This document shows positions 1,887-15,348 of a stretch of DNA of 64,000 nucleotides, in pieces. The first letter of the stretch is position 1; each line of letters opens with the position of its first letter. Position numbers and translations under genes: made by a program. The notes below the pieces were generated by a model that had not been told where the DNA came from, did no database searches, and worked only from the letters and a program-made list of their open reading frames with translations. Source of the stretch: Candidatus Kapaibacterium sp. (lineage in GTDB: Bacteria; Bacteroidota; Ignavibacteria; Kapaibacteriales; Kapaibacteriaceae); contig JBGAJM010000001.1 in assembly GCA_044224925.1 (NCBI GenBank), forward strand, positions 113,021-177,020, written 5' to 3'.

Positions 1887-3113
1887 CTAGGCAATCATCG
1901 TGGGATGAGCGATGACGGCCGCAAGCCGCTCTGCACAACGCATGGCCATCACTCCGGCTTCCAGCAACGAGTTCGATGCAAGGCGGTTGCTTCCATGCAT
2001 GCCCGTGCGTGCACATTCGCCAATGGCTGAGATCCGCTCGATGGATGTGGACCCATCGATCGTTGTCGCAATGCCACCACATTGATAGTGCGCAACGGGT
2101 CGTACGGGAACAAGGTCGACGGAAGGATCGATGTCCAATGCTCGACAGTTCTCGATAAACGTTGGGAAGTGCGTAACAAGATGCTGTCGGTCAAGATGCC
2201 GACAATCAAGCCACACACGGTCGACCTCTTCGCGCTGCATCTCCTGTCGCATGGCCGCCACCACCACGTCACGCGTGGCGAGTTCTGCGCGTGCATCGTA
2301 CCGCGGCATGAAGCGCTCACCGGCCGTGTTCCGCAACCACGCGCCGGCACCGCGAATGGCCTCGGTGATCAACGGTGCCGTCCCCGCACACGTCGACGTT
2401 GCAAAGGCCGTCGGATGGAACTGCATCCATTCGAGATCTCGCAACGGCAGTCCAAGTTCTTCAGCGATGCGAAGCGCATCACCCATGGCCGTTGGAGGGT
2501 TGGAGGTGTGTGTATAAAGCTGACCGGATCCGCCCATAGCAAGCACGACCCTTCGGGCGGTGAGCGTGATGTGGTCTCCATCGTGCACGTTCATGCAGGA
2601 GAGCAGTACGTGGTTCGGACGAACCCGCACGGACATGCATCGACAGTGTTCACGGATGCGTACGTTTCGCTGCCGACGGAGTTCGGCATGCAGCTTCTGC
2701 ATCACACGGGCCCCCGTCGCATCCGATGCACGCAGAACGCGCGCGCATTGATGTCCACCCTCGCATGCATACGACGGCGCGCCATGCACGTCGCGATCGA
2801 ATCGAACGCCAAGTGTTTCAAGGACGTGCACCAGGCGCGGTGCATCGCCAATGATGGACCGAACCACGTCGGCATCACAATGTCCATTCCCAGCCGCAAT
2901 TGTGTCGGCAACATGCACATCGGCATCATCGGCACGGTCCACACGTGGTACGGCCATGCCGCCTTGCGCCATCATACTAGCGCATATATCAAGCGACGAC
3001 GCTGTCAGCACCGAGATCGATGCCTCCGCACACCGTCGCGATAGTTCCAGTGCCGTAAGCGTACCGGCAAGACCGCCACCAACGATCACCACATCGTCAA
3101 CAGCGTTGTTCAT
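1887..3113 (-). CDS. nadB: L-aspartate oxidase
   Basis: N-terminal FAD fold VVIVGGGLAGTLTALEL. The C-terminal HYQCGGI...GMHGSNRLASNSLLE segment matches the NadB/succinate-dehydrogenase flavoprotein family. The start overlaps the nadA stop (ATGA). Confidence 0.9.
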   Translation of the reverse strand: MNNAVDDVVIVGGGLAGTLTALELSRRCAEASISVLTASSLDICASMMAQGGMAVPRVDRADDADVHVADTIAAGNGHCDADVVRSIIGDAPRLVHVLETLGVRFDRDVHGAPSYACEGGHQCARVLRASDATGARVMQKLHAELRRQRNVRIREHCRCMSVRVRPNHVLLSCMNVHDGDHITLTARRVVLAMGGSGQLYTHTSNPPTAMGDALRIAEELGLPLRDLEWMQFHPTAFATSTCAGTAPLITEAIRGAGAWLRNTAGERFMPRYDARAELATRDVVVAAMRQEMQREEVDRVWLDCRHLDRQHLVTHFPTFIENCRALDIDPSVDLVPVRPVAHYQCGGIATTIDGSTSIERISAIGECARTGMHGSNRLASNSLLEAGVMAMRCAERLAAVIAHPTMIA

Positions 3114-4039
3114 TGCACCAACTCGAACATGCGGTGGATCGGACGGACGGCACGTGCTGCTAGCTCTGCATCGATCTCGATGCGCGGTGCAAGTGTGCGC
3201 AAGGCGTTGCGCACACCATCAAGCGTGTTCATCTTCATGTGCGGACATGCACTGCAGGCACATTCTGTCACCTGAAGGGGAGGGGCAGGGATCAAGGTGG
3301 CAAGGGGAGCATGGTGGCGCATCTTGTGCAGAATGCCCACTTCCGTGGCCACAATGAAGGAGTCGTGCGGATGGTCCATCACATACGTCAGCAATGCCGA
3401 CGTCGATCCGATCACATCGGCACGTTCCAGCACGGGCGACGGACACTCCGGATGTGCGAGAATTCGCGCGTTCGGGTTTGCGAGTCGTAGGGTATCGAGC
3501 TGCTGTGCATCGAAGGCGGCATGCACTTCGCATTCCGCATTCCACAGGACCATGGGGCGTCCTGTGCGCTGCTGCAGCCAGGCTCCCAGATGTCGGTCCG
3601 GACCGAACACCAACGGTCGATCGTGGGGAAGAGCGGCGATCACACGTTCTGCATTCGCAGACGTGCAGACCACATCGCTCATGGCCTTCATCTCCAGTCC
3701 ACTGTTCACATAACTCACCACCGTATGATCGGCATGCGCTGCAAGGAATTCGCGATAGGCATCGGGCGGACTCTGTTCCACAAGCGAACACGATGCGTCG
3801 AGGGTTGGTGCAAGCACGATCGTGTCGGGGTTGAGCAGCTTTGCCGTCTCCGCCATGAAGCGCACACCGGCCAGCACGATCACATCGGCCTGCGTCTGTT
3901 GGGCAGCCAAGGCAAGTTGCAGACTATCGCCAACAGCATCGGCCACATCCTGGATCTCAGGTCGTTGATAATAGTGCGCCAACACCACAGCATTGTGTTG
4001 GTGCTTCAGTTCTGCGATCTCATCTACGGTCGACATCAT
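3110..4039 (-). CDS. nadA: quinolinate synthase A
   Basis: Characteristic NadA segments are present (LAHYYQRPEIQDVAD, YVNSGLEMKAMSDVVCTSANAERV, conserved Cys residues). The gene is translationally coupled to nadB downstream. Confidence 0.9.
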   Translation of the reverse strand: MMSTVDEIAELKHQHNAVVLAHYYQRPEIQDVADAVGDSLQLALAAQQTQADVIVLAGVRFMAETAKLLNPDTIVLAPTLDASCSLVEQSPPDAYREFLAAHADHTVVSYVNSGLEMKAMSDVVCTSANAERVIAALPHDRPLVFGPDRHLGAWLQQRTGRPMVLWNAECEVHAAFDAQQLDTLRLANPNARILAHPECPSPVLERADVIGSTSALLTYVMDHPHDSFIVATEVGILHKMRHHAPLATLIPAPPLQVTECACSACPHMKMNTLDGVRNALRTLAPRIEIDAELAARAVRPIHRMFELVQ

Positions 4040-4092
4040 GATTTCGGCTCCTGTTGTCCGAAATTACGATGAGGAGATGAAAGGCGCATAAC

Positions 4093-6369
4093 TTAATGTA
4101 CGACGTGAACCATGCTGTTGGTCGTCATGTTTCCAACTTGTACACGTAACAGGTACAAACCTGAAGGCAATTGATGCACATCAATGATGTGTTGATGTGT
4201 ACCAGCATCACGTGAGTTCTCGACAGAATTCTGCACCTCATTGCCCGTGACGTCGATCAATCGAAACGTCACACTACTGCGTTCTTGTAGCTGGTAGGTG
4301 ATCGTTGTAGATGACGCACATGGCGCAGGGCTAATGGAAAGGACGTTGCATGCCTGAACTCGTTGCGATGACTCTGGATGATCACTGTGTACTGACGTGA
4401 TCGAAGACATGCTTTGCTTCCAGATGTGCTCGCCATCAGTGAAGAGCTGTGAAGATCCATTGAGACGTGGCAAATACGCGACTGAATTCGCGCCAGGTTC
4501 TGAAACGACAGGCGATACCCGCCAAGTTCTACCATGATCCAAAGACAGAACCACCGCACCATGTGAAGTGCCAGAAGCTAATATGGTATCCCCTTCGGCG
4601 CTGATACATTCTAGAACACCGGTTAGGGGGTAGTCGATGCCGGGAGGGTGGACCGGTGTCCACGAGGCACCCATATCGGTGGACCGAAGGTATCCCGGTG
4701 TACTTGACATTGCAAGCAACTGCCATGTACCATTTGTGTCGTGAACGGCATTGATACCAGACAATCCAAGGCCATTGTAACCCGATGGTTCGGACCACTT
4801 GGTGCCATTGTTGGTAGAACGTACTACAACGCCGTTATAACAGGCGAACAAATTCGTTTCACCGGCATTGGTACGCAGGGCCACCATACCGGTCACAAAG
4901 CCTGCAAAGTCCGATCCCTTGTTTTCCAAGATCCATGTTGTGCCGTAGTCGGTGCTTCTGAAAATGACCATACCATATGCGCTAACGTAAACATCGGTGC
5001 CCCCACCGCCATCGCCCACAGTCGATATGCACTGAATGAAATTGATCGACGCTACTGGTTCCCACGTATCGCCATTTGTGCCACTGCGAAACACTTTGTC
5101 ATTGGTAGTTGCTAGGAGTATTTCTCCACCATTTGCTGTGCTGCAAACGGCGACACTTCGAAGACTCGTTGCGAAGTACGGAGCATGAAGATCGGTCCAA
5201 TGCGCTCCATCATCGTCACTACGAAACAATCCAAAGCCGTACACATGCATAAAGACACTAGGCCCGTTCACACCCTTTTGTGATGTGGCCATAAGGCGGT
5301 ATCCGATCACTTCAAAACCGCTATTCACCTTTAACCATGTTTTTCCTGCATCTGATGAGTGTAAGACCCCGCCTGCAGCATACAGGCCTGCATATATGTG
5401 CTGCTCACTCGTGGAATCCGTGCTTGCGCATATTCGAAAAATGGCCTGGCCAGAATTCACCCTTTGCACCAACTCCCAACTTGCTCCAAGGTCGGTTGAG
5501 CGGACGAGGCCGGCCCCGGTGCCTGCAATGATGCAGGTTCTTCCATCACGATCTGCTGTGATAACGATGGAAAACACCTGCAAGTCGTCAAGACCATCAT
5601 TCGACTTTGTCCACGTCACTCCATCATCATCCGACAGGTAGAATCCTGCAACATAGGTGCCCAGAACGTGCCTGAATCTGTTCGACCCCAGCTTGACCAT
5701 GGCAGATGCATTTACAGCGTTGCTTGGGATGCCAACGCATCGCGACCATGTGGCACCGCTATTCGTCGACCGAAAAGCTCCATACGTGCCAGTACATGCA
5801 TAGACAATCAATCCGCCTACGCCGTCCGGATAGCCGAACAGTTTGGTCCCGTAGAGACCACCTGAAGGTATGTCCAAATAACGCCAATGAGCGCCGTCAT
5901 CAAATGATTGAAATGCTGCGCCCGAGTCCAAACCGCAAAACAGTGTTCGCTCGAACGGTGAACGCTGAGCTACACTTACAGAGTGAACACCCATATTCAT
6001 TAACTGAATATCAACCGGACTGCTTCTACCATCACGCACAACATGATGTTCAATTCCACCTTCAGAGGCTACAAAGAGTTGAACATCACCATCAGCATCT
6101 AAAAAGGTGCATATGTCATTCCGAGTAACACTGCGGTTAGGCAGGCTGAGATCCCTCCATGACGATCCGTTATCTGAAGAACGAAATACCTTGCTATTTA
6201 TCAGAGCAAAGACAGATCCACCGGCTTCTGATATCGAGCGAACTGAGGCACCCTCTATGCTTTCGCATTTCATCCATTGTGCCCGCAAAGGTTGCACGGA
6301 CCAGAACAACGGTACAAGAAGCCAAAGAAAGAGAAGAGGTAAGTTGCGAGGTTGAGGGCAGGTGTTCAT
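4093..6369 (-). CDS. secreted BNR/Asp-box repeat (sortilin/Ycf48-like) protein with a T9SS C-terminal sorting domain
   Basis: Many S-x-D-x-G-x-T-W Asp-box motifs (SDDDGVTW, SDAGKTW, STDYGTTW, STNNGTKW, STDMGASW, SLDHGRTW). I chose the internal start at M40 (MNTCPQPRNLPLLFLWLLVPLFWSVQPLRAQ), which is followed by a signal peptide. The track ORF extends to 6486. The C-terminal about 80 aa have a Por/T9SS CTD pattern. Confidence 0.7.
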   Translation of the reverse strand: MNTCPQPRNLPLLFLWLLVPLFWSVQPLRAQWMKCESIEGASVRSISEAGGSVFALINSKVFRSSDNGSSWRDLSLPNRSVTRNDICTFLDADGDVQLFVASEGGIEHHVVRDGRSSPVDIQLMNMGVHSVSVAQRSPFERTLFCGLDSGAAFQSFDDGAHWRYLDIPSGGLYGTKLFGYPDGVGGLIVYACTGTYGAFRSTNSGATWSRCVGIPSNAVNASAMVKLGSNRFRHVLGTYVAGFYLSDDDGVTWTKSNDGLDDLQVFSIVITADRDGRTCIIAGTGAGLVRSTDLGASWELVQRVNSGQAIFRICASTDSTSEQHIYAGLYAAGGVLHSSDAGKTWLKVNSGFEVIGYRLMATSQKGVNGPSVFMHVYGFGLFRSDDDGAHWTDLHAPYFATSLRSVAVCSTANGGEILLATTNDKVFRSGTNGDTWEPVASINFIQCISTVGDGGGGTDVYVSAYGMVIFRSTDYGTTWILENKGSDFAGFVTGMVALRTNAGETNLFACYNGVVVRSTNNGTKWSEPSGYNGLGLSGINAVHDTNGTWQLLAMSSTPGYLRSTDMGASWTPVHPPGIDYPLTGVLECISAEGDTILASGTSHGAVVLSLDHGRTWRVSPVVSEPGANSVAYLPRLNGSSQLFTDGEHIWKQSMSSITSVHSDHPESSQRVQACNVLSISPAPCASSTTITYQLQERSSVTFRLIDVTGNEVQNSVENSRDAGTHQHIIDVHQLPSGLYLLRVQVGNMTTNSMVHVVH

Positions 6370-6604: not shown

Positions 6605-8164
6605 ATGATTGTACCGCGACGCAGACGAATCACCTGTTCACTTGAAGTTCTCCATATGCTGGATGTGTTTGACGAGACGAAAGACGGACCGTGGGGCCGG
6701 CCGCACGCAGCTCACCTGTTACGACGGATGATGATCGGCGCCACGCCGCTCGAGATCACTCGGGCTGTTGCCGAAGGCAGAGAGCGCACGATCGACCGAT
6801 TACTGCGACCGTGGGAAGTGCCAATGGATCACGTGGCGCAGCTCGTGGATGGCGATGTGATGGCAGAGATACAGCCGATCGACATTCCCGAGTACCGACA
6901 GTTCTTCGATACAAAGGACCGGCGCTACATCGAGACCGTGCAATGGTGGGCTGGCATCATGATCCGTGGTGAGTTCTCTGCACAGGAGCGTCTCACGCTA
7001 TGGTGGCACATGTGCATCCCTTCGTCGTTCAACGGATCGCATTTCGCAGAGAACATCATCGATCAGAACAAGACCATGCGACAGCACTGTATGGGCAATG
7101 TGCGGACGATGGTGGACGAGCTCGTGCATGGGATGGCGCTGCAGATCTATCTCAGCGGAACGGAGAATGTCTGGAAGCCGGACTACGATGGGATCAATGA
7201 GAACCTCGCGAGGGAACTTCTCGAGTTGTTCTTGCTGGGTCGGCGAGGATCGAACAACGAGCCAAACTATACGCAGTACGACATAACACAGATCGCCCGA
7301 GCGCTCAGCGGCCTCCGCATCCAGGAGTATCATCGTGTGGATGACAAGGGCATCGACTATCTCTATCGCAAGCGGCGGTTGCAATTCCGCGAAGATCATT
7401 GGGACCCGCAAGAGAAGACGATCTTCGGTCATCAAGGGGCTTTCAAGAGCACAGACGTCTTGGACATCCTCTTCACGACCAAGCAACAACAGATCGCCTA
7501 CCATATCTGTTCACGATGGTATCAGAGCTTTGTCAACGAAGTGCTTGCAGATGACGTTGTCGCAGCCATGGCAGACATTCTCCTTGCGAACGACATGAAC
7601 ATCGAACCCGTGATCCGTGCAGTCCTCAACAGTTCGCACTTCTACGAAGCATCTAATCGCATGTCCATTTCCACCCCTGCCTCCATTACCTTCCTTGGTC
7701 AGTTACGATACGCCGCCGTTGGATACATCCCGGATCTGGATGATGTGGAAGGTGGCAAGGAGGAAGACCTCTTCATTCGCCTTCGGAGTATGGGACAATG
7801 CATGTACTATCCGCCCAATGTGTCGGGATGGCCCACCGGCATGAGCACGGTATCGGGAAGTAGCATAGCGTGGCGACTGGAACAGCATCGCAGACTATGG
7901 CAAGGGAAGTTGTACTTCAAAGACTATCCGGGGGGACGTCAGGTGTATCCCATTGAAAGCGCCGACTTCAATGAAATGTACGGACGTGAGGTGTCCATTA
8001 AAGACCTTGCCGCCCTTGCAACCGTCGATCTCCTTGGCTTGAGTGAAGCAGAAGCGAAGCAAGCGGCGGAAGAGCTGTGCGCAGATCTCCCGGGAGATCA
8101 GGATGCTGCACTGCGACAGATCATGACGGCGGTAACGACTTCACCACGCATGTTGTTCTCATGA
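6605..8164 (+). CDS. DUF1800 family protein
   Basis: Contains the HLLRRMMIGATP motif typical of DUF1800 (H-L-L-R-R-x-G-F-G). It sits immediately upstream of a DUF1501 gene with an 8-bp gap, the canonical DUF1800/DUF1501 pairing. The true start may be the internal Met at about 6656. Confidence 0.8.
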   Translation: MIVPRRRRITCSLEVLHMLDVFDETKDGPWGRPHAAHLLRRMMIGATPLEITRAVAEGRERTIDRLLRPWEVPMDHVAQLVDGDVMAEIQPIDIPEYRQFFDTKDRRYIETVQWWAGIMIRGEFSAQERLTLWWHMCIPSSFNGSHFAENIIDQNKTMRQHCMGNVRTMVDELVHGMALQIYLSGTENVWKPDYDGINENLARELLELFLLGRRGSNNEPNYTQYDITQIARALSGLRIQEYHRVDDKGIDYLYRKRRLQFREDHWDPQEKTIFGHQGAFKSTDVLDILFTTKQQQIAYHICSRWYQSFVNEVLADDVVAAMADILLANDMNIEPVIRAVLNSSHFYEASNRMSISTPASITFLGQLRYAAVGYIPDLDDVEGGKEEDLFIRLRSMGQCMYYPPNVSGWPTGMSTVSGSSIAWRLEQHRRLWQGKLYFKDYPGGRQVYPIESADFNEMYGREVSIKDLAALATVDLLGLSEAEAKQAAEELCADLPGDQDAALRQIMTAVTTSPRMLFS

Positions 8165-8171
8165 GGAGACC

Positions 8172-9686
8172 ATGAAACGCAGACAGTTTCTCACATCGGT
8201 AGGGAAGGCAGGATTGGTGCTGCCGTGCATGCAGTCGGGTATGATGCGTGCATTTGCCGCACCAACGGATCAGATGGGACACCTTGCAACCGAGAGTCTC
8301 GGCGGCGAACGGATACTCGTCGTCCTGCGCATGTTCGGTGGGAACGATGGCTTGAACACCATCGTGCCGATTCACGATGACGAATACTATCGTATCCGTG
8401 GAGGAGGTCGACCATATGATCTCTCGATCCCGCGAGAACGCGTACTCCCCATACCCGATGTTGATGGCTATGGCATGCATCCATCGATGGCGCCCCTCAT
8501 GGAGTTGTACAACGAAGGGTCTGTTGCAATTGTGCAAGGGGTTGGCTATCCGAACATGGACCTGTCGCACTTTCGAGGCACGGACATATGGCTGTCGGCA
8601 AGTGATGCGAACGTCTATCAGCAATCGGGGTGGTTAGGACGAATGTTCGACATGGAGAAGTTCGAGAACGAGACGGATCCGTATGCGATAGAGTACGGCG
8701 ATGCTGTTGGGAGGTTGCTGCATGGAGCTCACGGCGTACATGGTCATACCTATCACGCCTCACATCAGTTTGCGGGAAATGAGGACGTACGAGGATTGAA
8801 CGACGGTCATATCGGCGCGAACGATTTCTCGTCGCGGTTCCAGCGGGCGCAAGTTCACGGTCGGTCGATCGAGCGGGCACTTTCTCTTGTCACACAACAG
8901 ACGCGGCCGTATGACAAGGACTCGCCACTAGCCGGCTCGTTGAGAACAACATCACGACTCATTCGCGCGGGTATGTCGACGCAGGTATACATCATCCACG
9001 CCGGTCAGTTCGATACGCATCACCGTCAGCAAGAGGTCCACGCCCAACAACTCGACGAGCTCTTTCAAGGCGTCCATTCGTTCTATCGCGAGTTGCAAGA
9101 TGCAGGCGATGCAGATCGCGTATGTGTGCTTGTCATCAGTGAGTTCGGACGTCGCGTAGAGCCCACCCAAACAGGCACCGACCACGGCACGGCCGCGCCC
9201 GTCTTTCTCATAGGAGGGAAGGTGCAGGGCGGCATGCACGGAACGGCACCGAGTGTCACCGAACTCGATGCTGACGGAAACCTGCTATGGAACGTCGACT
9301 TCCGACAGATCTATTCCTCGATCCTACGTCAATGGTTCCAAGCCTCACCATCAGCCATAGACGAAGTGATCCTACCACGACTCTTTCAACCGCTCCCACT
9401 CTTTGCAGTGTCGAGTCAGCCACGTCATCCATTCGAGCTCACACCCATTCCGTGCAGTGGTCACCTCACGGTCAACGGCACCGCCCTCACGCCGACGAGC
9501 GCATCGGCCGTCATTCGCGACATCAATGGCCGTCAGGTCCTGCAGACCACACTCGATCTTCAAGTGGCAACGCGCATCCCGTTGCCGTCGCTACCCTCCG
9601 GCGTTTACGTTCTCGACATCACAACAACCTCTGCACACTCTGCACCAATGCAGTACCGCACGGCTTTCCCGGTGGTGCGGGTGTGA
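8172..9686 (+). CDS. DUF1501 family protein with a twin-arginine signal and a T9SS C-terminal sorting domain
   Basis: N-terminus MKRRQFLTSVGKAGLVLP carries the Tat consensus RRxFL. FGGNDGLNT motif present. C-terminal about 80 aa (VIRDINGRQVLQ...LPSGVYVLDIT) match the T9SS CTD pattern. Confidence 0.85.
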   Translation: MKRRQFLTSVGKAGLVLPCMQSGMMRAFAAPTDQMGHLATESLGGERILVVLRMFGGNDGLNTIVPIHDDEYYRIRGGGRPYDLSIPRERVLPIPDVDGYGMHPSMAPLMELYNEGSVAIVQGVGYPNMDLSHFRGTDIWLSASDANVYQQSGWLGRMFDMEKFENETDPYAIEYGDAVGRLLHGAHGVHGHTYHASHQFAGNEDVRGLNDGHIGANDFSSRFQRAQVHGRSIERALSLVTQQTRPYDKDSPLAGSLRTTSRLIRAGMSTQVYIIHAGQFDTHHRQQEVHAQQLDELFQGVHSFYRELQDAGDADRVCVLVISEFGRRVEPTQTGTDHGTAAPVFLIGGKVQGGMHGTAPSVTELDADGNLLWNVDFRQIYSSILRQWFQASPSAIDEVILPRLFQPLPLFAVSSQPRHPFELTPIPCSGHLTVNGTALTPTSASAVIRDINGRQVLQTTLDLQVATRIPLPSLPSGVYVLDITTTSAHSAPMQYRTAFPVVRV

Positions 9687-9882
9687 ATGGTCCTTTACAA
9701 ACTGTCAACATCATTGGGTGAAGATCAGAATGAAGTTATTCTATGCTCAATAGTAAATTGTATTCATGTAAGCGTTGGGTACGGAGTTAAGTGGTCTCAC
9801 TAACGCGGTATCGTGTGGACAATGGACGCGGAATCTCCCAGGCAACGCCAATGAGTGATCAAATAGTTGAATCGGGGAAAGA

Positions 9883-10968
9883 ATGAGTTCCAATGTTGAA
9901 TCAATCGTTGTAAGGCTACTCGAAGATATTGACACCAATTTTGGGTCAAGTCGCGAGGCGCTAGATTTACTCAAAGAGAATACTCTGCTTGATGACGAGG
10001 TGTTTCTGCTTGAGGCAGGTCTGCTTGTTAGGCGAATAATTCATGGTAACAAAAGTGAAGCTATTCGGGTAATAGAACATTCAAACATTGTTCAACAGAC
10101 AAGTAACATGTCGTTTGTGTATGGATGCTTACTGAAATATGAAAATGGCAAGACCGATTACGATGAGCTTCTGACCTTGCAAAGAAACCTGAGAAATCAG
10201 TCTGGTTTCACCCCAATTGAGCGACGATTGACGGTGATCGCTTATGTTCTGGCACTTTTAAGCCTACAATTGCCAATCGTTTGTGTCAACTATTTGAGAC
10301 GGAATGAGGTCGACTCAAGTTGCTGTGTAATCCGACTTCTCTCGTGCGAAGTGTATTTTCAACTGTCGGAGTACAGCGTCCTTTCCGAGGAGTTGAAAAC
10401 TTTGCAACCCGGAGTTGGGGCGGATTGGCAGGCCCGAATCGCTGAATTGGCACTTATTAGGAGTGGGAATCTGGAAGATGCTGTAGCAATGGTGTCAAGT
10501 AAAAGCGATACGGGGCTGCCATTGAACGATGACGTTCTAATTGAGTATTGTATCATAAGCTATCGTCAACATTACTTCAACCCAAGATTTGAAGCATTAG
10601 TTGAATCTAGCCCATATGTAAGTAAACATGCACTCCAACTTTACAAAGCGGTGTGCCAATTCACTCAAGGGAATGTGAAGGATGGTCTCAACATACTTCG
10701 GGAAGTACTTGCGAAAATTGACGACTATCTCGTTCAGACTATGTATTTCGAAAATAGCGCAAAGGTGAATGGAGCAACAGTGCTAGCACGCGAAATAGCG
10801 GATTATAAAGAGCTGTACGGAGAAGATGTTTTTTGGTTTGCCGTAGTATGCGCCATTGAATCGGCGCCTGGCACGCTTGTTAACCCCTTCCTTGAAGATC
10901 CAAGCCTTCCATACGATCAGACCGAGTTTTTCACATACTACAGTATCATTAGTCAGGCACTTGGCTGA
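9883..10968 (+). CDS. hypothetical protein (AT-rich island ORF, likely all-alpha)
   Basis: 361-aa ORF in a markedly AT-richer stretch. Codon usage differs from the flanking genes. No motif recognised. Confidence 0.5.
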   Translation: MSSNVESIVVRLLEDIDTNFGSSREALDLLKENTLLDDEVFLLEAGLLVRRIIHGNKSEAIRVIEHSNIVQQTSNMSFVYGCLLKYENGKTDYDELLTLQRNLRNQSGFTPIERRLTVIAYVLALLSLQLPIVCVNYLRRNEVDSSCCVIRLLSCEVYFQLSEYSVLSEELKTLQPGVGADWQARIAELALIRSGNLEDAVAMVSSKSDTGLPLNDDVLIEYCIISYRQHYFNPRFEALVESSPYVSKHALQLYKAVCQFTQGNVKDGLNILREVLAKIDDYLVQTMYFENSAKVNGATVLAREIADYKELYGEDVFWFAVVCAIESAPGTLVNPFLEDPSLPYDQTEFFTYYSIISQALG

Positions 10969-11172
10969 GTGGAGATACCGCCGAATGTGACCACGAGATT
11001 CCGCTACAATGATTCGATTTAGACAGCACTCACATGTCAAAGCAACTGCAATATAGATCACGGTTTAGCCAATCAAGAAACGACATCGAATGGCGGTCAA
11101 CAGCGTGCGGAAAGAAGTGGTCATGGTGCAGGAATCTCCAATGAGGCGGACTTTGTTGAAAGGAGAGTTGCC

Positions 11173-11733
11173 GTGAGTTCTAAACTGAGAATATTCGAGC
11201 CTATTGTTGCCGATGGATGCGAGATTTGCCATCCAATGGATTCTGATGATTTTAACGTTTTTGCCAGGTTGATCAATTGTGTGTCTAGAGTATCCACCTG
11301 GAGGCCCATTCCGATGAAACTAGTTTCTCAAGACGAGGGTGTTGAAGCTTCATACTCAGACTCCCCTTGGTTGGGGGAGCATACACTAATATTTAGGACC
11401 CCATTGAAAGAGGCTCTGGGTGCGCTATTGATGGCGAATGGTGAACTTCTCCCGTTAGTCTGTTCTGAAGCTGATCTCGTTGTTTTCAACGCTACGAGAA
11501 TGATCGACGCACTCAATGAAGAAGAATCAACTTTGTCGCGATTTAGTGGAGGACAGATCTACTGGATCAAGCGCTATGTGTTTCGTCCGGACGTAGTCGA
11601 CGGTGTTGACATATTCAAGATACCCAACCTTACTGTTAGCCCCACGTTTGTAAGCGAACGATTTGTGGATACTTGGAATGCTTGTGGACTCGTTGGCCTT
11701 GACTTTCTACCTGTTTGGGAACCGCGTGGTTGA
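11173..11733 (+). CDS. putative polymorphic-toxin immunity protein (DUF1629 / Imm11-like)
   Basis: 186-aa ORF. The C-terminal segment IFKIPNLTVSPTFVSERFVDTWNACGLVGLDFLPVW resembles, from memory, the conserved C-terminus of DUF1629/Imm11 immunity proteins. It lies in the AT-rich island. Confidence 0.45.
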   Translation: MSSKLRIFEPIVADGCEICHPMDSDDFNVFARLINCVSRVSTWRPIPMKLVSQDEGVEASYSDSPWLGEHTLIFRTPLKEALGALLMANGELLPLVCSEADLVVFNATRMIDALNEEESTLSRFSGGQIYWIKRYVFRPDVVDGVDIFKIPNLTVSPTFVSERFVDTWNACGLVGLDFLPVWEPRG

Positions 11734-11920
11734 TCGATAGCCATTGCGGCAAGCAGGATTGTTCAGAAACTGTCAATGATCCAAAGATTCCCGATACTCA
11801 TGAAAGCACCACCATCACGTGATCAATCGAGGGCCTTTTGCCATGTAAACCTCCATCCGTAATATGAGAAATGAAGGCCATTGGATTGAAAATCAAACGG
11901 CGGAAATAACAAGGTGACTA

Positions 11921-12193
11921 ATGAGGAATACCCAACGAAGTGTCAGAGTTGAGTTTGTTGGAGACATCAATACTGAGTATCCATATCTGGAGGTCTTTTT
12001 GAATGAAGGTGTTGGGCCTTTTATAGAGATAGGTGTATCACCAAGTAAGGAATTGTATTTCAAGTATTGGGCCACTGACGAGGAGATTGTGCTATGTGCG
12101 GATGATATTGAGTATTTGTTATCTGAAGCAAGGGACTTTTTACCCTATGTCCTCAAGAATGAGGAGGATAATCGCCGTCACTATGGGTTGTGA
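11921..12193 (+). CDS. small hypothetical protein (island ORF, 90 aa)
   Basis: ORF with island-typical composition, on the same strand as its neighbours. No recognisable motif. Confidence 0.35.
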   Translation: MRNTQRSVRVEFVGDINTEYPYLEVFLNEGVGPFIEIGVSPSKELYFKYWATDEEIVLCADDIEYLLSEARDFLPYVLKNEEDNRRHYGL

Positions 12194-12335
12194 CTAGAGC
12201 CTCCGTACACGAAGATCAGCTCAATCCATGGGCAGTTGGCAAAGAGTGATGTAGGGTGCGATACTTCCTAGCTCATTGCTAGATTGCATTTGACTGAACG
12301 TCGAAGCGCAGTACTATATATTCACAGTGGTGTGA

Positions 12336-12938
12336 ATGTTAGTGCGCACACGACACGAAATCGACAATATCGGCTCGCCCGTCATAATAGTGAGAAAGAG
12401 AAACATGGATCAGTTAATTGACATAATGACCGACGTCGATCACTTACTGACTCGGCACGATTTTCAATTGCAAGAGCGATCGGACTTCCTCCTTTCGTAT
12501 GTCAAGAACAATTTGGAAATACGAATTGGTCACAATGTACGAGAGAACTCAAACATCTTTTTCTATGGTGTGCAAGGCTGCACTGCATTTGAGATCACTG
12601 ATCGACTCATTAAAGAGTGCTTTAAATCTGATGTTAGAGTTAATGATCTCACCCTGCCAAAGTTTGCTGAGAATTTGTATGTGTTGTTAAGTGGTGCAGG
12701 AAAAGTGCTCTTGGATGGTGATATAGACACTGTTCTTGGACTTTTACAATATCAAAGGCGAATAGCGACCGAGTACAGCAATGAGTTACTTCATCTTCAA
12801 TACGACCGTATTGTAGAGGAAGCATGGAGGGCAAGGGAGTATCAGAAAGTCATTGAGTATTTGTTGAAAATAGGCGAAGTCAATATGACAAGATCACAGG
12901 GGCTAAAGTTAGAAATAGCCAGACGCAGGGTCGAGTGA
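12336..12938 (+). CDS. hypothetical protein (island ORF, possible immunity-type protein)
   Basis: 200-aa ORF in the AT-rich island. An alternative start at the internal Met (MDQLIDIM) at about 12405 is possible. Confidence 0.45.
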   Translation: MLVRTRHEIDNIGSPVIIVRKRNMDQLIDIMTDVDHLLTRHDFQLQERSDFLLSYVKNNLEIRIGHNVRENSNIFFYGVQGCTAFEITDRLIKECFKSDVRVNDLTLPKFAENLYVLLSGAGKVLLDGDIDTVLGLLQYQRRIATEYSNELLHLQYDRIVEEAWRAREYQKVIEYLLKIGEVNMTRSQGLKLEIARRRVE

Positions 12939-13232
12939 AGCATCGTTTGCAAAGTGATCGTGTGCGACCGTATACGCCATCAGCCAAGATAGGACACACA
13001 AGAGAGCTCATGTTGAGTGAATTATGCCATCTCAGCATCGCATACGAATTCATCGCACTTCGTCAGAGAGTGCTCGTAAAGGCGTATGAAAGGCACGTTG
13101 CTCACGATAGGAGTCGACATCAACAAGACGGAGAATGGTCAAATGTTGTCGTAAATTCATGAGCACTACGCTTCCAGTGATCGTTGGCAGGTTCCGATCT
13201 CACTCGGTGTTTAGTCGAATATCACCACTTCT

Positions 13233-13499
13233 TTGGGTTACAGACTATCTGAACCAAAGTCTTTACTCACCGACAACTATATTGCCGGGAATTCAATGTG
13301 CTTTAAACAAATGTTGGCAATCGGACAAATGCAGTCAGATTATAGTCTGCGTAATCCGCCTGGAACGGTTTGGCACCACCCAGGCGACAATCCTGATGTG
13401 ATGCGTCTTTTGCGAGTGGAAGAGCTTGCCAACCTACATATACAACCGGTGCTTCATCCGAACGGCGCCGGTGGATACAGGAAAATCTATGTCCCCTGA
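13233..13499 (+). CDS. orphan polymorphic-toxin C-terminal module: WHH-type HNH/EndoVII-fold nuclease domain (no N-terminal delivery region)
   Basis: 88-aa ORF with a TTG start. It contains GTVWHHPGDNPDVMRLLRVEELANLHIQPVLHPNGAGG, which gives a WHH motif followed by Asn/His residues consistent with a beta-beta-alpha-Me fold. The frame opens only about 18 nt upstream (stop at 13212-13214). Its stop TGA at 13497-13499 overlaps the ATG at 13489 of the next gene. Confidence 0.5.
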   Translation: MGYRLSEPKSLLTDNYIAGNSMCFKQMLAIGQMQSDYSLRNPPGTVWHHPGDNPDVMRLLRVEELANLHIQPVLHPNGAGGYRKIYVP

Positions 13500-14112
13500 T
13501 CTCATTCGCAAGCAGTCAATTGAGACGGCATCGCGTCTCGGTTATTCAACTAACCACGCGTTGCCGCTCTTAGACGATGTTCAAAACTTGAGAACGATTG
13601 ATGAATCCGTCAACCGCCTCCTGTGCCTGAATGCAGTGGCTGCATGCGCGTACGGCTTCGATAGGCACAAGGCCGTGGAATGGCTGCGGCAGGAAGGCGT
13701 ATTTGATGAACTGGCGACATCAGAACGTCGGTTTATTGAGAACAGTGACGGTGATCCCATTCGCTTTCAAGTTCAGGTCGAAGGGTTATGGGCATTAGCG
13801 TGGGCACTTGGTATTGTGCCTCAACTTGACTTCGGGGAGTACTGTGACGACAATTTCGTCATCCTGATGCCGAATATAAGAAGCGGAGAAACAAGCGACG
13901 TCCTACGCTCGAAGATCAATCCTCGCACAACCGTCGAAGTCCTTGCGGCCTGTGATCTTGCGTATTGTCTTCATTGGGCGGCCAGAGAGGCTCTACTAAC
14001 CGGAGGCAAACTGCCTGGAGATGTGCAACTGTACGTCATCGAAGAAAGAAGGCGCATGCTAGAATGGTTAATTGGTGAAGAGGAATGGGATGAAGTAACA
14101 CTCGATACATAG
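13489..14112 (+). CDS. putative cognate immunity protein for the WHH toxin module
   Basis: ATG at 13489 overlaps the toxin stop (ATGTCCCCTGA). 207 aa. The track ORF starts earlier, at a TTG at 13426. No family assigned. Confidence 0.5.
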   Translation: MSPDLIRKQSIETASRLGYSTNHALPLLDDVQNLRTIDESVNRLLCLNAVAACAYGFDRHKAVEWLRQEGVFDELATSERRFIENSDGDPIRFQVQVEGLWALAWALGIVPQLDFGEYCDDNFVILMPNIRSGETSDVLRSKINPRTTVEVLAACDLAYCLHWAAREALLTGGKLPGDVQLYVIEERRRMLEWLIGEEEWDEVTLDT

Positions 14113-14488
14113 TCTGACGTTGCAATGTGCAGCGACGTCGAGCCGCTATTGTGTGAGGCAATGTCATTTAACTTAGACAACTGTCGATACGTCATTCAGT
14201 TAAGTGTCGCCACTTTCATTTATGCGCACAGGTAAGTCTCCAGGCCGGTCGCCCTCCATGGTAACTATGGATTGAATGAGATAGGGCAAAGGTCGATAGA
14301 TTGGCCAACACACTTCACCACGTAACACTTCGCCACGTGATGCATCGTGTAATTCTTCAATGCGCATTTCTAGATTTCATCTGCCTGGACGTTGATATGC
14401 AGTACTACGTGGTCATTGTGAGGCGGAAGATCGTTGGCATATGACGCAGAGTCGAGCTACTAGAACCCGAACAAAGAGGAAAAGACTG

Positions 14489-14995
14489 ATGAACAGAATG
14501 ATGAACAAGATGTTGTTCGTTCTCACAATTGCGGCTTTCTTCCCTCGAGAAGTAGAAACCTGCTCTTGTGTCGGTGGTGTGCCAAATATATCTAGATCGC
14601 TGAGCAACTTTGAAACAGCATTCATCGGAGTATGCCGTTCTTCAGAGGTGGATACCTTGATCACTTACATTCGAAAACCATTTCGCGATACGATCAAAAG
14701 CGTCGTGTCAACCTCACAGTTTGTCGTTAAGTATGGACTCAAGAATAGTCGGAGAATGGACAACATCACCGTCAGGTCACCGATTGAGAGTAATGCATGT
14801 GGCGTGCACTTTACGGTCGGTGGGTCGTACATTGTTTTCGGTGACGATACAAGGAGTCGCATGCGATATAGCCTGAATGACACAACCGTATTCGTTCTAG
14901 AGGTCAGCAAGTGCAGTGCGACTCAAGTCACCACGAAATCAGCGGTTGATACGTTGCGGAGGCTCACGGGAATGAAGATTGCATTTCCGAAATGA
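14489..14995 (+). CDS. hypothetical secreted protein (signal peptide MNRMMNKMLFVLTIAAFF)
   Basis: ORF 14441-14995, with a hydrophobic signal-like segment after the internal Met at 14489. Last ORF of the island before the tRNA-Lys terminator. Confidence 0.45.
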   Translation: MNRMMNKMLFVLTIAAFFPREVETCSCVGGVPNISRSLSNFETAFIGVCRSSEVDTLITYIRKPFRDTIKSVVSTSQFVVKYGLKNSRRMDNITVRSPIESNACGVHFTVGGSYIVFGDDTRSRMRYSLNDTTVFVLEVSKCSATQVTTKSAVDTLRRLTGMKIAFPK

Positions 14996-15236
14996 CATCA
15001 GATGAAGGTCTCTTCTTTTGTTGATGGCAAAGACCATCTCGGCCAACGAACCATCAGTCGAACTTTGTATTGTAGTATAGGGAGCAAACCCAAGACGAGG
15101 AAGTGATCGATAAGATCGAGCACATTGATTGGTGTGTGACATCTCGCATGTTCGTTGTTTCGCGCGTTCCTTCCAGAGTGACATGCAAACGGACTCTACG
15201 AAGTCAGGCCGTATTCGGAAGGTGCAGCGACAACGC

Positions 15237-15272
15237 AAAAAGCCGCACCAACAATGTTGATGCGGCTTTTCT
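15237..15272. terminator. bidirectional rho-independent terminator hairpin (AAAAA-GCCGCA-loop-TGCGGC-TTTT)
   Basis: A perfect 6-bp GC-rich stem flanked by an A-run upstream and a T-run downstream. It lies directly 3' of tRNA-Lys on the minus strand, and the + strand ORF 14441..14995 (last island ORF) ends about 240 nt upstream of it. Confidence 0.6.
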
Positions 15273-15275
15273 CTG

Positions 15276-15348
15276 TGACCCCGTTGGGACTCGAACCCAA
15301 GACCCTTTGATTAAAAGTCAAATGCTCTACCAGCTGAGCTACGGGATC
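15276..15348 (-). tRNA. tRNA-Lys (anticodon UUU)
   Basis: The reverse complement GATCCCGTAGCTCAGCTGGTAGAGCATTTGACTTTTAATCAAAGGGTCTTGGGTTCGAGTCCCAACGGGGTCA folds as a cloverleaf: 7-bp acceptor stem, D-loop AGCTGGTA, anticodon stem TTTGA/TCAAA with loop CTTTTAA, T-loop TTCGAGT. It closely resembles canonical bacterial tRNA-Lys. CCA is not encoded. Confidence 0.85.

Follow-up and report, generated by a model that had tools for sequence, protein, structure and literature searches.

A probable orphan immunity gene of the DUF4272 family beside the truncated remnant of a predicted HNH nuclease toxin tip

An orphan immunity gene beside a stub of its toxin is a common and already known arrangement. 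In Bacteroidales, the immunity islands called acquired interbacterial defence (AID) and recombinase-associated AID (rAID) islands were reportedly described by Ross et al. in 2019. These islands hold immunity genes without cognate effectors, are foreign in composition, vary between close relatives and presumably guard against the toxins of neighbours (Azhieh et al. 2025, PMC12247911). In the T6SS (type VI secretion) immunity arrays of Vibrio cholerae, the 3' end of a former toxin stands before an intact immunity gene. The arrays are heterogeneous and reshuffled, with the toxin lost and the immunity gene retained (Kirchberger et al. 2017, PMC5361080). Orphan cdiA-CT/cdiI and rhs-CT/rhsI modules of contact-dependent growth inhibition (CDI) and Rhs systems consist of a C-terminal (CT) toxin fragment without its delivery region, followed by an immunity gene (Poole et al. 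2011, PMC3150448; Koskiniemi et al. 2014, PMC3967940). The classical orphans of this type retain a CT that is complete from its VENN or DPxGL motif onward, are toxic when expressed and lie 3' of a full-length cdiA or rhs gene. Here we describe a locus in a 64,000-nucleotide stretch of a Candidatus Kapaibacterium sp. genome (hereafter, the window). It comprises an 88-codon open reading frame (ORF) with a WHH motif, overlapping an intact 207-aa gene of the family DUF4272. The pair is probably an orphan immunity gene that carries the stub of its former toxin.

The ORF listing places the small ORF at 13233..13499, and its translation contains the peptide GTVWHHPGDNPDVMRLLRVEELANLHIQPVLHPNGAGGYRKIYVP with the WHH motif. 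A stop codon lies exactly 6 codons 5' of the TTG start in the same frame (GV*SNITTS-L). At its other end, the small ORF shares 11 nt with the 207-aa ORF (13489..14112). These read ATGTCCCCTGA at 13489-13499, where the ATG at 13489 starts the 207-aa ORF and the TGA at 13497-13499 ends the 88-aa ORF. Everything that the initial annotation described is present in the sequence. In public gene calls, the small ORF begins at ATG 13296 and encodes 67 aa (P0001, 100% identical). For comparison we used a sister genome, L003, whose flanking genes are 91% identical to those of the window. The DNA common to the two begins only at 13268 (blastn). Junction DNA therefore makes up the first ~12 codons that follow the TTG, and the toxin-derived part starts from about 13268.

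The small ORF has relatives in a large protein family. A phmmer search of 5.8e9 proteins returned ten homologues, with E values from 1e-10 to 1e-40. A hidden Markov model (HMM) built from five long homologues matches the window ORF at E 3.6e-23, and the similarity is far above chance. The conserved unit is ~120 aa long, and its N-terminal half (…N-YE-L-E-PI-G--R-AHR-SAN…) precedes the part kept in the window. Among 1.84e9 cluster representatives, the tip profile found 482 matches, 77 of them below 1e-30, and in every case the match reaches the last residue of the protein. Many of these proteins are 1,200-3,091 aa long. The long ones inspected, which include proteins of 1,813-3,091 aa, have RHS_repeat and DUF6531 together with M23 or transglutaminase modules, and an Acidovorax protein (L012) has the Rhs core-end motif DPIGL ~165 aa before its C-terminus. 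This architecture marks the domain as a true C-terminal tip of polymorphic (Rhs-type) toxins.

WHH and Colicin-DNase are HNH/His-Me finger nuclease domains, and the tip family resembles both. When 60 members were scanned singly against Pfam, Colicin-DNase (PF12639) matched 40/60 at E <= 1 (best E 6.5e-6, profile positions 23-90) and WHH (PF14414) matched 37/60 at E <= 1 (best E 3.7e-5). Every other Pfam family matched at most 2/60. The scores lie under both gathering thresholds, at 12.5-17.7 bits for the members with returned bit scores. Against Pfam WHH, whose threshold is 25.1 bits, the full-length homologues score 15-18 bits. In the numbering of the complete tip protein P0008, the residues N107, P108, W113, H114, H115, L125, H131, H141, G146 and G147 are invariant or nearly so in the 60 sequences, as are G57, R60, R64, A67 and N68 in the N-terminal half. 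The family is marked by a conserved G-R-R-AN N-terminal half and an HP-GG-GG-F/Y C-terminal tail. One Trp and four His form the signature of functional WHH domains, and toxicity needs the fourth His (PMC13515810); the RhsP paper (PMC6156420) has been retracted and is not relied on here. The tip family has this signature as W113, H114, H115, H131 and H141. In an AlphaFold2 (AF2) model of P0008, the predicted local distance difference test score (pLDDT) is 97-98 over residues 45-150, and the WHH closes beta-1, followed by beta-2 and then a helix. A PDB sequence search with the tip profile gave no match. A Foldseek search of the tip model against the PDB gave none of significance; 8bd1_A was second in rank, at E 5.5. 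From the Pfam scans, the Rhs architecture and the model, we infer that the full tip is a WHH-like/colicin-DNase-like HNH (beta-beta-alpha-metal) nuclease. A WHH-type HNH nuclease tip is also what the initial annotation had proposed as the source of the peptide.

The window copy is the 3' end of such a tip. Of the 140 positions in the HMM of the five long homologues, only 83-138 align to it. A scan of 12700-13500 in all three forward frames, with stops masked, found no tip homology 5' of model position 83. An upstream stretch in the same frame (…VPIS…), which by eye had resembled a decayed N-terminal half, was rejected when this stop-masked scan found nothing there. The copy keeps the last ~56-67 residues of the domain and lacks the conserved G-R-R-AN half. 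It retains W47, H48, H49 and H75 and has Leu65 at the position of the third signature His, which is present in at least 90% of family members. The changes at conserved positions are H65L, T66A, P68L and H32Q. The signature of one Trp and four His, complete in the family, is thus incomplete in the window copy. The initial annotation had suggested a search with the Pfam WHH model, and this scores the ORF at 12.5 bits (E 0.12), below the 25.1-bit cut-off. A Pfam Colicin-DNase scan of the ORF, which is without the matching N-terminal part, gave no match. The module had been thought merely to lack a delivery region; the cut instead falls inside the nuclease domain. The left edge of the shared cassette, at 13268, is common to L003, where the cassette directly follows the DUF1501 gene. 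The truncation is therefore older than the split of both lineages.

The two genes of the pair have evolved differently since that split. Compared with L003, the stub has a ratio of nonsynonymous to synonymous substitution rates (dN/dS) of 0.71 and 64% amino-acid identity, and the DUF4272 gene has a dN/dS of 0.18 and 89% identity. For DUF1501 and dxs the ratios are 0.08 and 0.03. The nonsynonymous rate of the stub is above that of DUF4272 (Fisher p = 8e-6), and the synonymous rates are equal (p = 0.70). Inside the stub, nonsynonymous and synonymous rates are alike (p = 0.52). Constraint on the stub is relaxed, to a pattern indistinguishable from neutral, and the DUF4272 gene is under purifying selection. 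The best-conserved parts of the stub are its last ~20 codons and the NPPGTVWHHP stretch. Since the probability that the frame survived 38 substitutions by chance is ~0.20, the open frame of the stub is uninformative. The stub is a 5'-truncated, decaying toxin remnant and not a complete orphan toxin module. It is predicted to be, most likely, non-toxic.

The partner gene is complete. The 207-aa ORF matches Pfam DUF4272 (PF14094) at E 8.4e-44 and 149.6 bits (cut-off 27), over profile positions 1-208 of 208, and every invariant column of the family is kept in the window protein. Its AF2 model is all-helical, with a pLDDT of 95.4. Comparison with the PDB found no specific relative, either by sequence (all chains) or by fold. 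We then took the loci with a tip or a remnant (L001/L002/L006, L003 and L004-L014), which come from Verrucomicrobiota, Sphingosinicella, Acidovorax, an Akkermansia metagenome-assembled genome (MAG) and a Flavobacteriales MAG. DUF4272 lies directly 3' of the tip or remnant in 13/13 independent loci, usually overlapping the toxin stop. This overlap of toxin stop and DUF4272 start is kept across phyla, with gaps of -1 to -38 nt, and is 11 nt in L001 too. Because it stands downstream of the tip in all 13 independent loci, DUF4272 is most likely the cognate immunity protein of the tip family. The constant linkage also agrees with the role of immunity partner that the initial annotation had expected of the overlapping ORF.

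The loci form a series that runs from the full toxin to a stub, to a stub with stop codons and to a lone immunity gene, and DUF4272 is intact throughout. Full toxins with DUF4272 are found in L005 (2,071 aa), L008 (2,175 aa), L012 (1,601 aa) and L014 (2,636 aa). The 5'-truncated stubs in the window and L003, and in L004, L007 and L010, are independent truncations with different cut points. In L011, a MAG, a single open frame of 293 aa (1830-2711) joins DUF4272 in frame to a remnant that corresponds to residues 39-76 of the window ORF. Sampling in reverse, starting from DUF4272 genes on long contigs, added L021, L020 and L018/L019. In L021 the complete tip is part of a 260-aa protein and is accompanied by DUF4272. 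In L020 a tip remnant lies 5' of DUF4272, at ~6828-6993, and is interrupted by in-frame stops, one of them at the Trp of WHH; this remnant is 3' of an SpvB/TcdB/RHS toxin of >2,163 aa. In L018/L019, DUF4272 stands without any remnant between MurD-like and PALP genes. An array in L010, an Akkermansia MAG, holds in succession a 455-aa LHH-nuclease protein, a SUKH-1 immunity gene, a 54-aa WHH-like stub and DUF4272 (3059-5604). This is a textbook case of the layout that effector displacement predicts (PMC5361080), in which an incoming effector-immunity module ousts an older effector but leaves the 3' end and the immunity gene of that effector in place.

The series also includes L001, where a complete 151-aa tip and DUF4272 form an orphan pair behind a polymorphic toxin of >3,424 aa. 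In the stretch 1-8004 of L001, this toxin, with RCC1 repeats, DUF6531 and Tox-ART-HYD1, is followed by a 94-aa DUF6881 protein (E 9.6e-36). The order suggests that DUF6881 is the immunity partner of the ADP-ribosyltransferase tip of L001.

These results can be arranged in a proposed history. The ancestor, or the donor of the cassette, would have carried a polymorphic toxin with a ~120-aa WHH-like/colicin-DNase-like HNH C-terminal tip. The DUF4272 immunity gene would have stood behind the tip, its start overlapping the toxin stop. Deletion or displacement would then have stripped off the delivery region together with the N-terminal half of the nuclease, leaving ~56-67 codons of the toxin 3' end and the complete DUF4272 gene. 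DUF4272 would be the functional part, a cytoplasmic protein that may bind and block incoming nucleases of the tip family. These would arrive with the Rhs-type toxins of neighbours, and DUF4272 would have been kept alone as protection. It would be one of several immunity genes, Imm11 being another, gathered in a low-GC, reshuffled islet by a tRNA-Lys gene. The stub probably persists because the start codon of the immunity gene, and probably its initiation or promoter region too, sits within the stub.

Several points weigh against this account. Gene linkage is the sole ground for giving DUF4272 an immunity role, and neither DUF4272 nor PF14094 is mentioned in the literature searched. The dN/dS of the stub is drawn from 67 codons only. 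Two lineages that are ~0.3 apart in dS have both kept the stub frame open and a start that could be used. The stub retains the predicted beta-beta-alpha core, the Trp, three of four His and the GG motif, so that on sequence alone it may have some residual activity. A metagenomic contig, L015, is 97.5% identical to the window over 13043-14376 and has 0 differences in 13155-13522, a substitution-free block that we read as recombination mosaicism, though it could reflect constraint. The same contig has 2 differences in 13523-13812 and 27 in 13813-14369, a mosaic pattern that suggests recent recombination inside the DUF4272 gene. Finally, the 64 kb are part of a contig of at least 950 kb, and the remainder of the genome may hold a full-length toxin that carries this tip.

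Other explanations of the pair were weighed against the same evidence. The initial annotation had seen in it a displaced orphan cassette kept as a recombination reservoir. On this reading the cassette would be functional but silent, and recombination would load the tip and its immunity gene onto a full-length rhs or filamentous toxin gene elsewhere in the genome. Reloadable orphan CT/immunity modules are documented for CDI and Rhs systems (PMC3150448; PMC3967940). L001 does hold its complete tip and DUF4272 as an orphan behind a large toxin, and the conserved NPPGTVWHHP stretch of the stub could act as a homology patch. However, the window copy is without the N-terminal half of the nuclease and without a pre-toxin or core-end (DPxGL-like) recombination arm. 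Recombination would be needed inside the domain, and the tip produced would have Leu at the third signature His. Among the large ORFs of the 64 kb, none encodes Rhs or another delivery protein; the stub evolves near-neutrally, and remnants elsewhere decay to stop codons or vanish while DUF4272 remains intact. We consider a reservoir at this locus very unlikely. Still less credence, in effect none, can be given to the idea that the 88-aa ORF arose by chance with a coincidental WHH, or that it is what a frameshift left of the end of some unrelated gene. The insignificant Pfam WHH match of the ORF alone would fit such an artefact, but homology ties the ORF itself to many toxin tips of one large family (E down to 1e-23). 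There is no upstream match in any frame, and the DNA left of the shared boundary at 13268 is unrelated. The tip homology, the upstream null result and the cassette boundary together refute this reading, and on this point the initial annotation is supported.

The stub could also be selected as a short translated leader that couples ribosomes to DUF4272, and maybe supplies a promoter, with its amino acids ignored. The TGA lies 8 nt past the DUF4272 ATG, and stop and start also overlap in loci of other phyla. Truncation has occurred independently five times (window/L003, L004, L007, L010 and L011), each time leaving at least ~40 codons of the toxin 3' end open. The strongest conservation between the window and L003 falls on the last ~20 codons and NPPGTVWHHP, and a pure leader ORF would be expected to combine near-neutral dN/dS with a frame that stays open. 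Yet the open frame is uninformative, as said above, and DUF4272 is intact in L020, where the remnant has in-frame stops, and in L018/L019, where it is missing. A sigma-70 promoter scan around the pair gave three sites vs 2.3 expected, which is chance level, and a terminator scan there found none. Selection for a leader is unlikely on balance, and it is compatible with the preferred explanation of an orphan immunity gene with its toxin stub. In a broader version, orphan DUF4272 genes, and perhaps orphan immunity genes generally, would need a translated remnant of the toxin 3' end for expression, through coupling or an internal promoter. DUF4272 would in addition be an unrecognised immunity family for a WHH/colicin-DNase-like tip that Pfam misses. 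This combined proposal is doubtful. If true, dependence on the remnant would account for the fact that deletions of independent origin, in different phyla, all end at least ~40 codons before the immunity start.

Features of the remnant locus and its islet (window coordinates)
Feature	Coordinates	Strand	Basis
88-codon ORF, 5'-truncated remnant of a predicted WHH-like/colicin-DNase-like HNH nuclease toxin tip	13233..13499	+	TTG start
Intact 207-aa DUF4272 gene, putative cognate immunity protein	13489..14112	+	ATG 11 nt within the end of the remnant ORF
Remnant + DUF4272 cassette, mobile or shuffled unit	13268..14165	+	86.9% identical to L003 9974-10870 (blastn)
Imm11-family gene, second orphan immunity gene	11173..11733	+	Pfam PF07791 E 4.4e-10, 39.6 bits, cut-off 22.1
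Low-GC variable islet between DUF1501 gene and tRNA-Lys	9728..15274	.	GC, synteny breaks vs L003
tRNA-Lys (anticodon UUU), right islet border	15275..15348	-	ARAGORN; Rfam tRNA 72.4 bits

The pair lies in an islet of ~5.5 kb whose GC content is mostly 0.42-0.47 (0.52 over the DUF4272 gene) vs 0.55-0.60 in the flanks. A DUF1800/DUF1501 pair borders the islet on the left, and tRNA-Lys(UUU) and dxs border it on the right. Its genes are a 361-aa ORF, Imm11, ORFs of 90 aa and 200 aa, the remnant/DUF4272 pair and a 184-aa ORF; four of its ORFs have no family assignment. The syntenic islet of L003 holds the same two recognisable cassettes in the other order and with different companions. The Imm11 gene, for example, is 86.5% identical to its L003 counterpart, which sits at another position in the islet. 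Imm11 and DUF4272 both occur with no cognate effector gene found in the 64 kb, in an order and content that vary relative to L003. Pfam and NCBIfam scans of the islet ORFs found no integrase or recombinase, and the NCBIfam scan of the islet proteins had no matches at all. A search for attC-like or direct repeats at the cassette edges gave only short two-copy matches of chance quality. The products of the large ORFs in the 64-kb window are IleRS, glutamine synthetase III, a topoisomerase, PorZ, proteins sorted by the type IX secretion system (T9SS) and the like; Rhs, CdiA and other polymorphic toxins or delivery proteins were not found among them.

Some further observations concern individual elements of the islet. 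The Imm11 gene has no toxin remnant in front of it, and the DNA shared with L003 starts only 32 nt 5' of it. For an intact gene, its dN/dS of 0.55 vs L003 is high. Right after DUF4272, the 184-aa ORF (14441-14995, +) encodes a signal-peptide-like stretch followed by C-S-C (…FFPREVETCSCVGGVP…ETAFIGVC…). We take this motif to recall the N-terminal CxC of TIMP/NTR metalloprotease inhibitors; the match to Pfam NTR is at E 0.028 only. The ORF has only 4 homologues in 5.8e9 proteins, all lineage-restricted, and one of them is near an IS21 fragment (L017). Its product could be a periplasmic inhibitor or an immunity-like protein. At the right edge of the islet, beside tRNA-Lys, there is a perfect-looking 16-nt inverted repeat at 15238-15270 (AAAAGCCGCACCAACA / TGTTGATGCGGCTTTT), which may be a terminator or a remnant of an attachment site. 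On the left border, the DUF1501 protein (8172-9686, +) has a weak Por_Secre_tail match (T9SS sorting) at E 3.9e-5, just under the cut-off. PorZ and the Por_Secre_tail proteins in the window point to a host of the Fibrobacteres-Chlorobi-Bacteroidetes (FCB) group (Bacteroidota-like).

The 88-aa ORF is thus the scar of a weapon and not a stored weapon, which corrects the earlier over-reading. Annotating DUF4272, an uncharacterised Pfam family, as an immunity family is a new but modest step and, coming from gene neighbourhoods, a provisional one. A second modest new point is the recognition of the tip family itself, with its one Trp, four His and G-R-R-AN half; its members with returned scores fall short of the thresholds of both Pfam models (WHH and Colicin-DNase), and it would merit its own profile model. 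As a natural case, the series of loci cleanly illustrates the origin and the persistence of orphan immunity genes, and it comes from lineages beyond the well-studied Proteobacteria and gut Bacteroidales.

Among the closest counterparts of the complete tip are RhsP-WHH (PDB 8bd1) and YPO3609 of Yersinia pestis (PMC13515810). Like the tip family, they have one Trp and four His, a beta-beta-alpha core (predicted for the tip family), a place at the C-terminus of an Rhs protein and an immunity gene directly downstream. The partners differ: that of YPO3609 is the SUKH/SMI1 protein YPO3610, and that of the tip family is DUF4272. PDB 8bd1 also holds the immunity protein RhsPI, yet there is no DUF4272 homologue among all PDB chains. 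With the orphan CDI and Rhs modules, the window pair shares a CT fragment that has lost its delivery region, an immunity gene immediately behind it, a poor initiation context for the fragment and a separate start for the immunity gene. Unlike the classical orphans, it has no complete CT from a demarcation motif (VENN / PxxxxDPxGL), as the cut lies in the middle of the catalytic domain, and it does not follow a full-length cdiA or rhs gene within the 64 kb.

The islet around the pair resembles the Bacteroidales AID and rAID islands in holding immunity genes without cognate effectors, in its foreign composition, in its variation between close relatives and, presumably, in guarding against the toxins of neighbours. 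Unlike rAID islands, it has no recombinase or integrative-element genes and no repeat-bounded cassettes, and only two of its immunity genes are recognisable. It differs from the T6SS arrays of V. cholerae in that no active effector or secretion cluster adjoins it and the toxin and immunity families are others; it is placed, in a genome that bears a T9SS, between a DUF1501 gene and tRNA-Lys. The resemblance to those arrays is in the pattern itself. In both, the 3' end of a former toxin stands before an intact immunity gene, in a heterogeneous and reshuffled setting where the toxin has been lost and the immunity gene retained.

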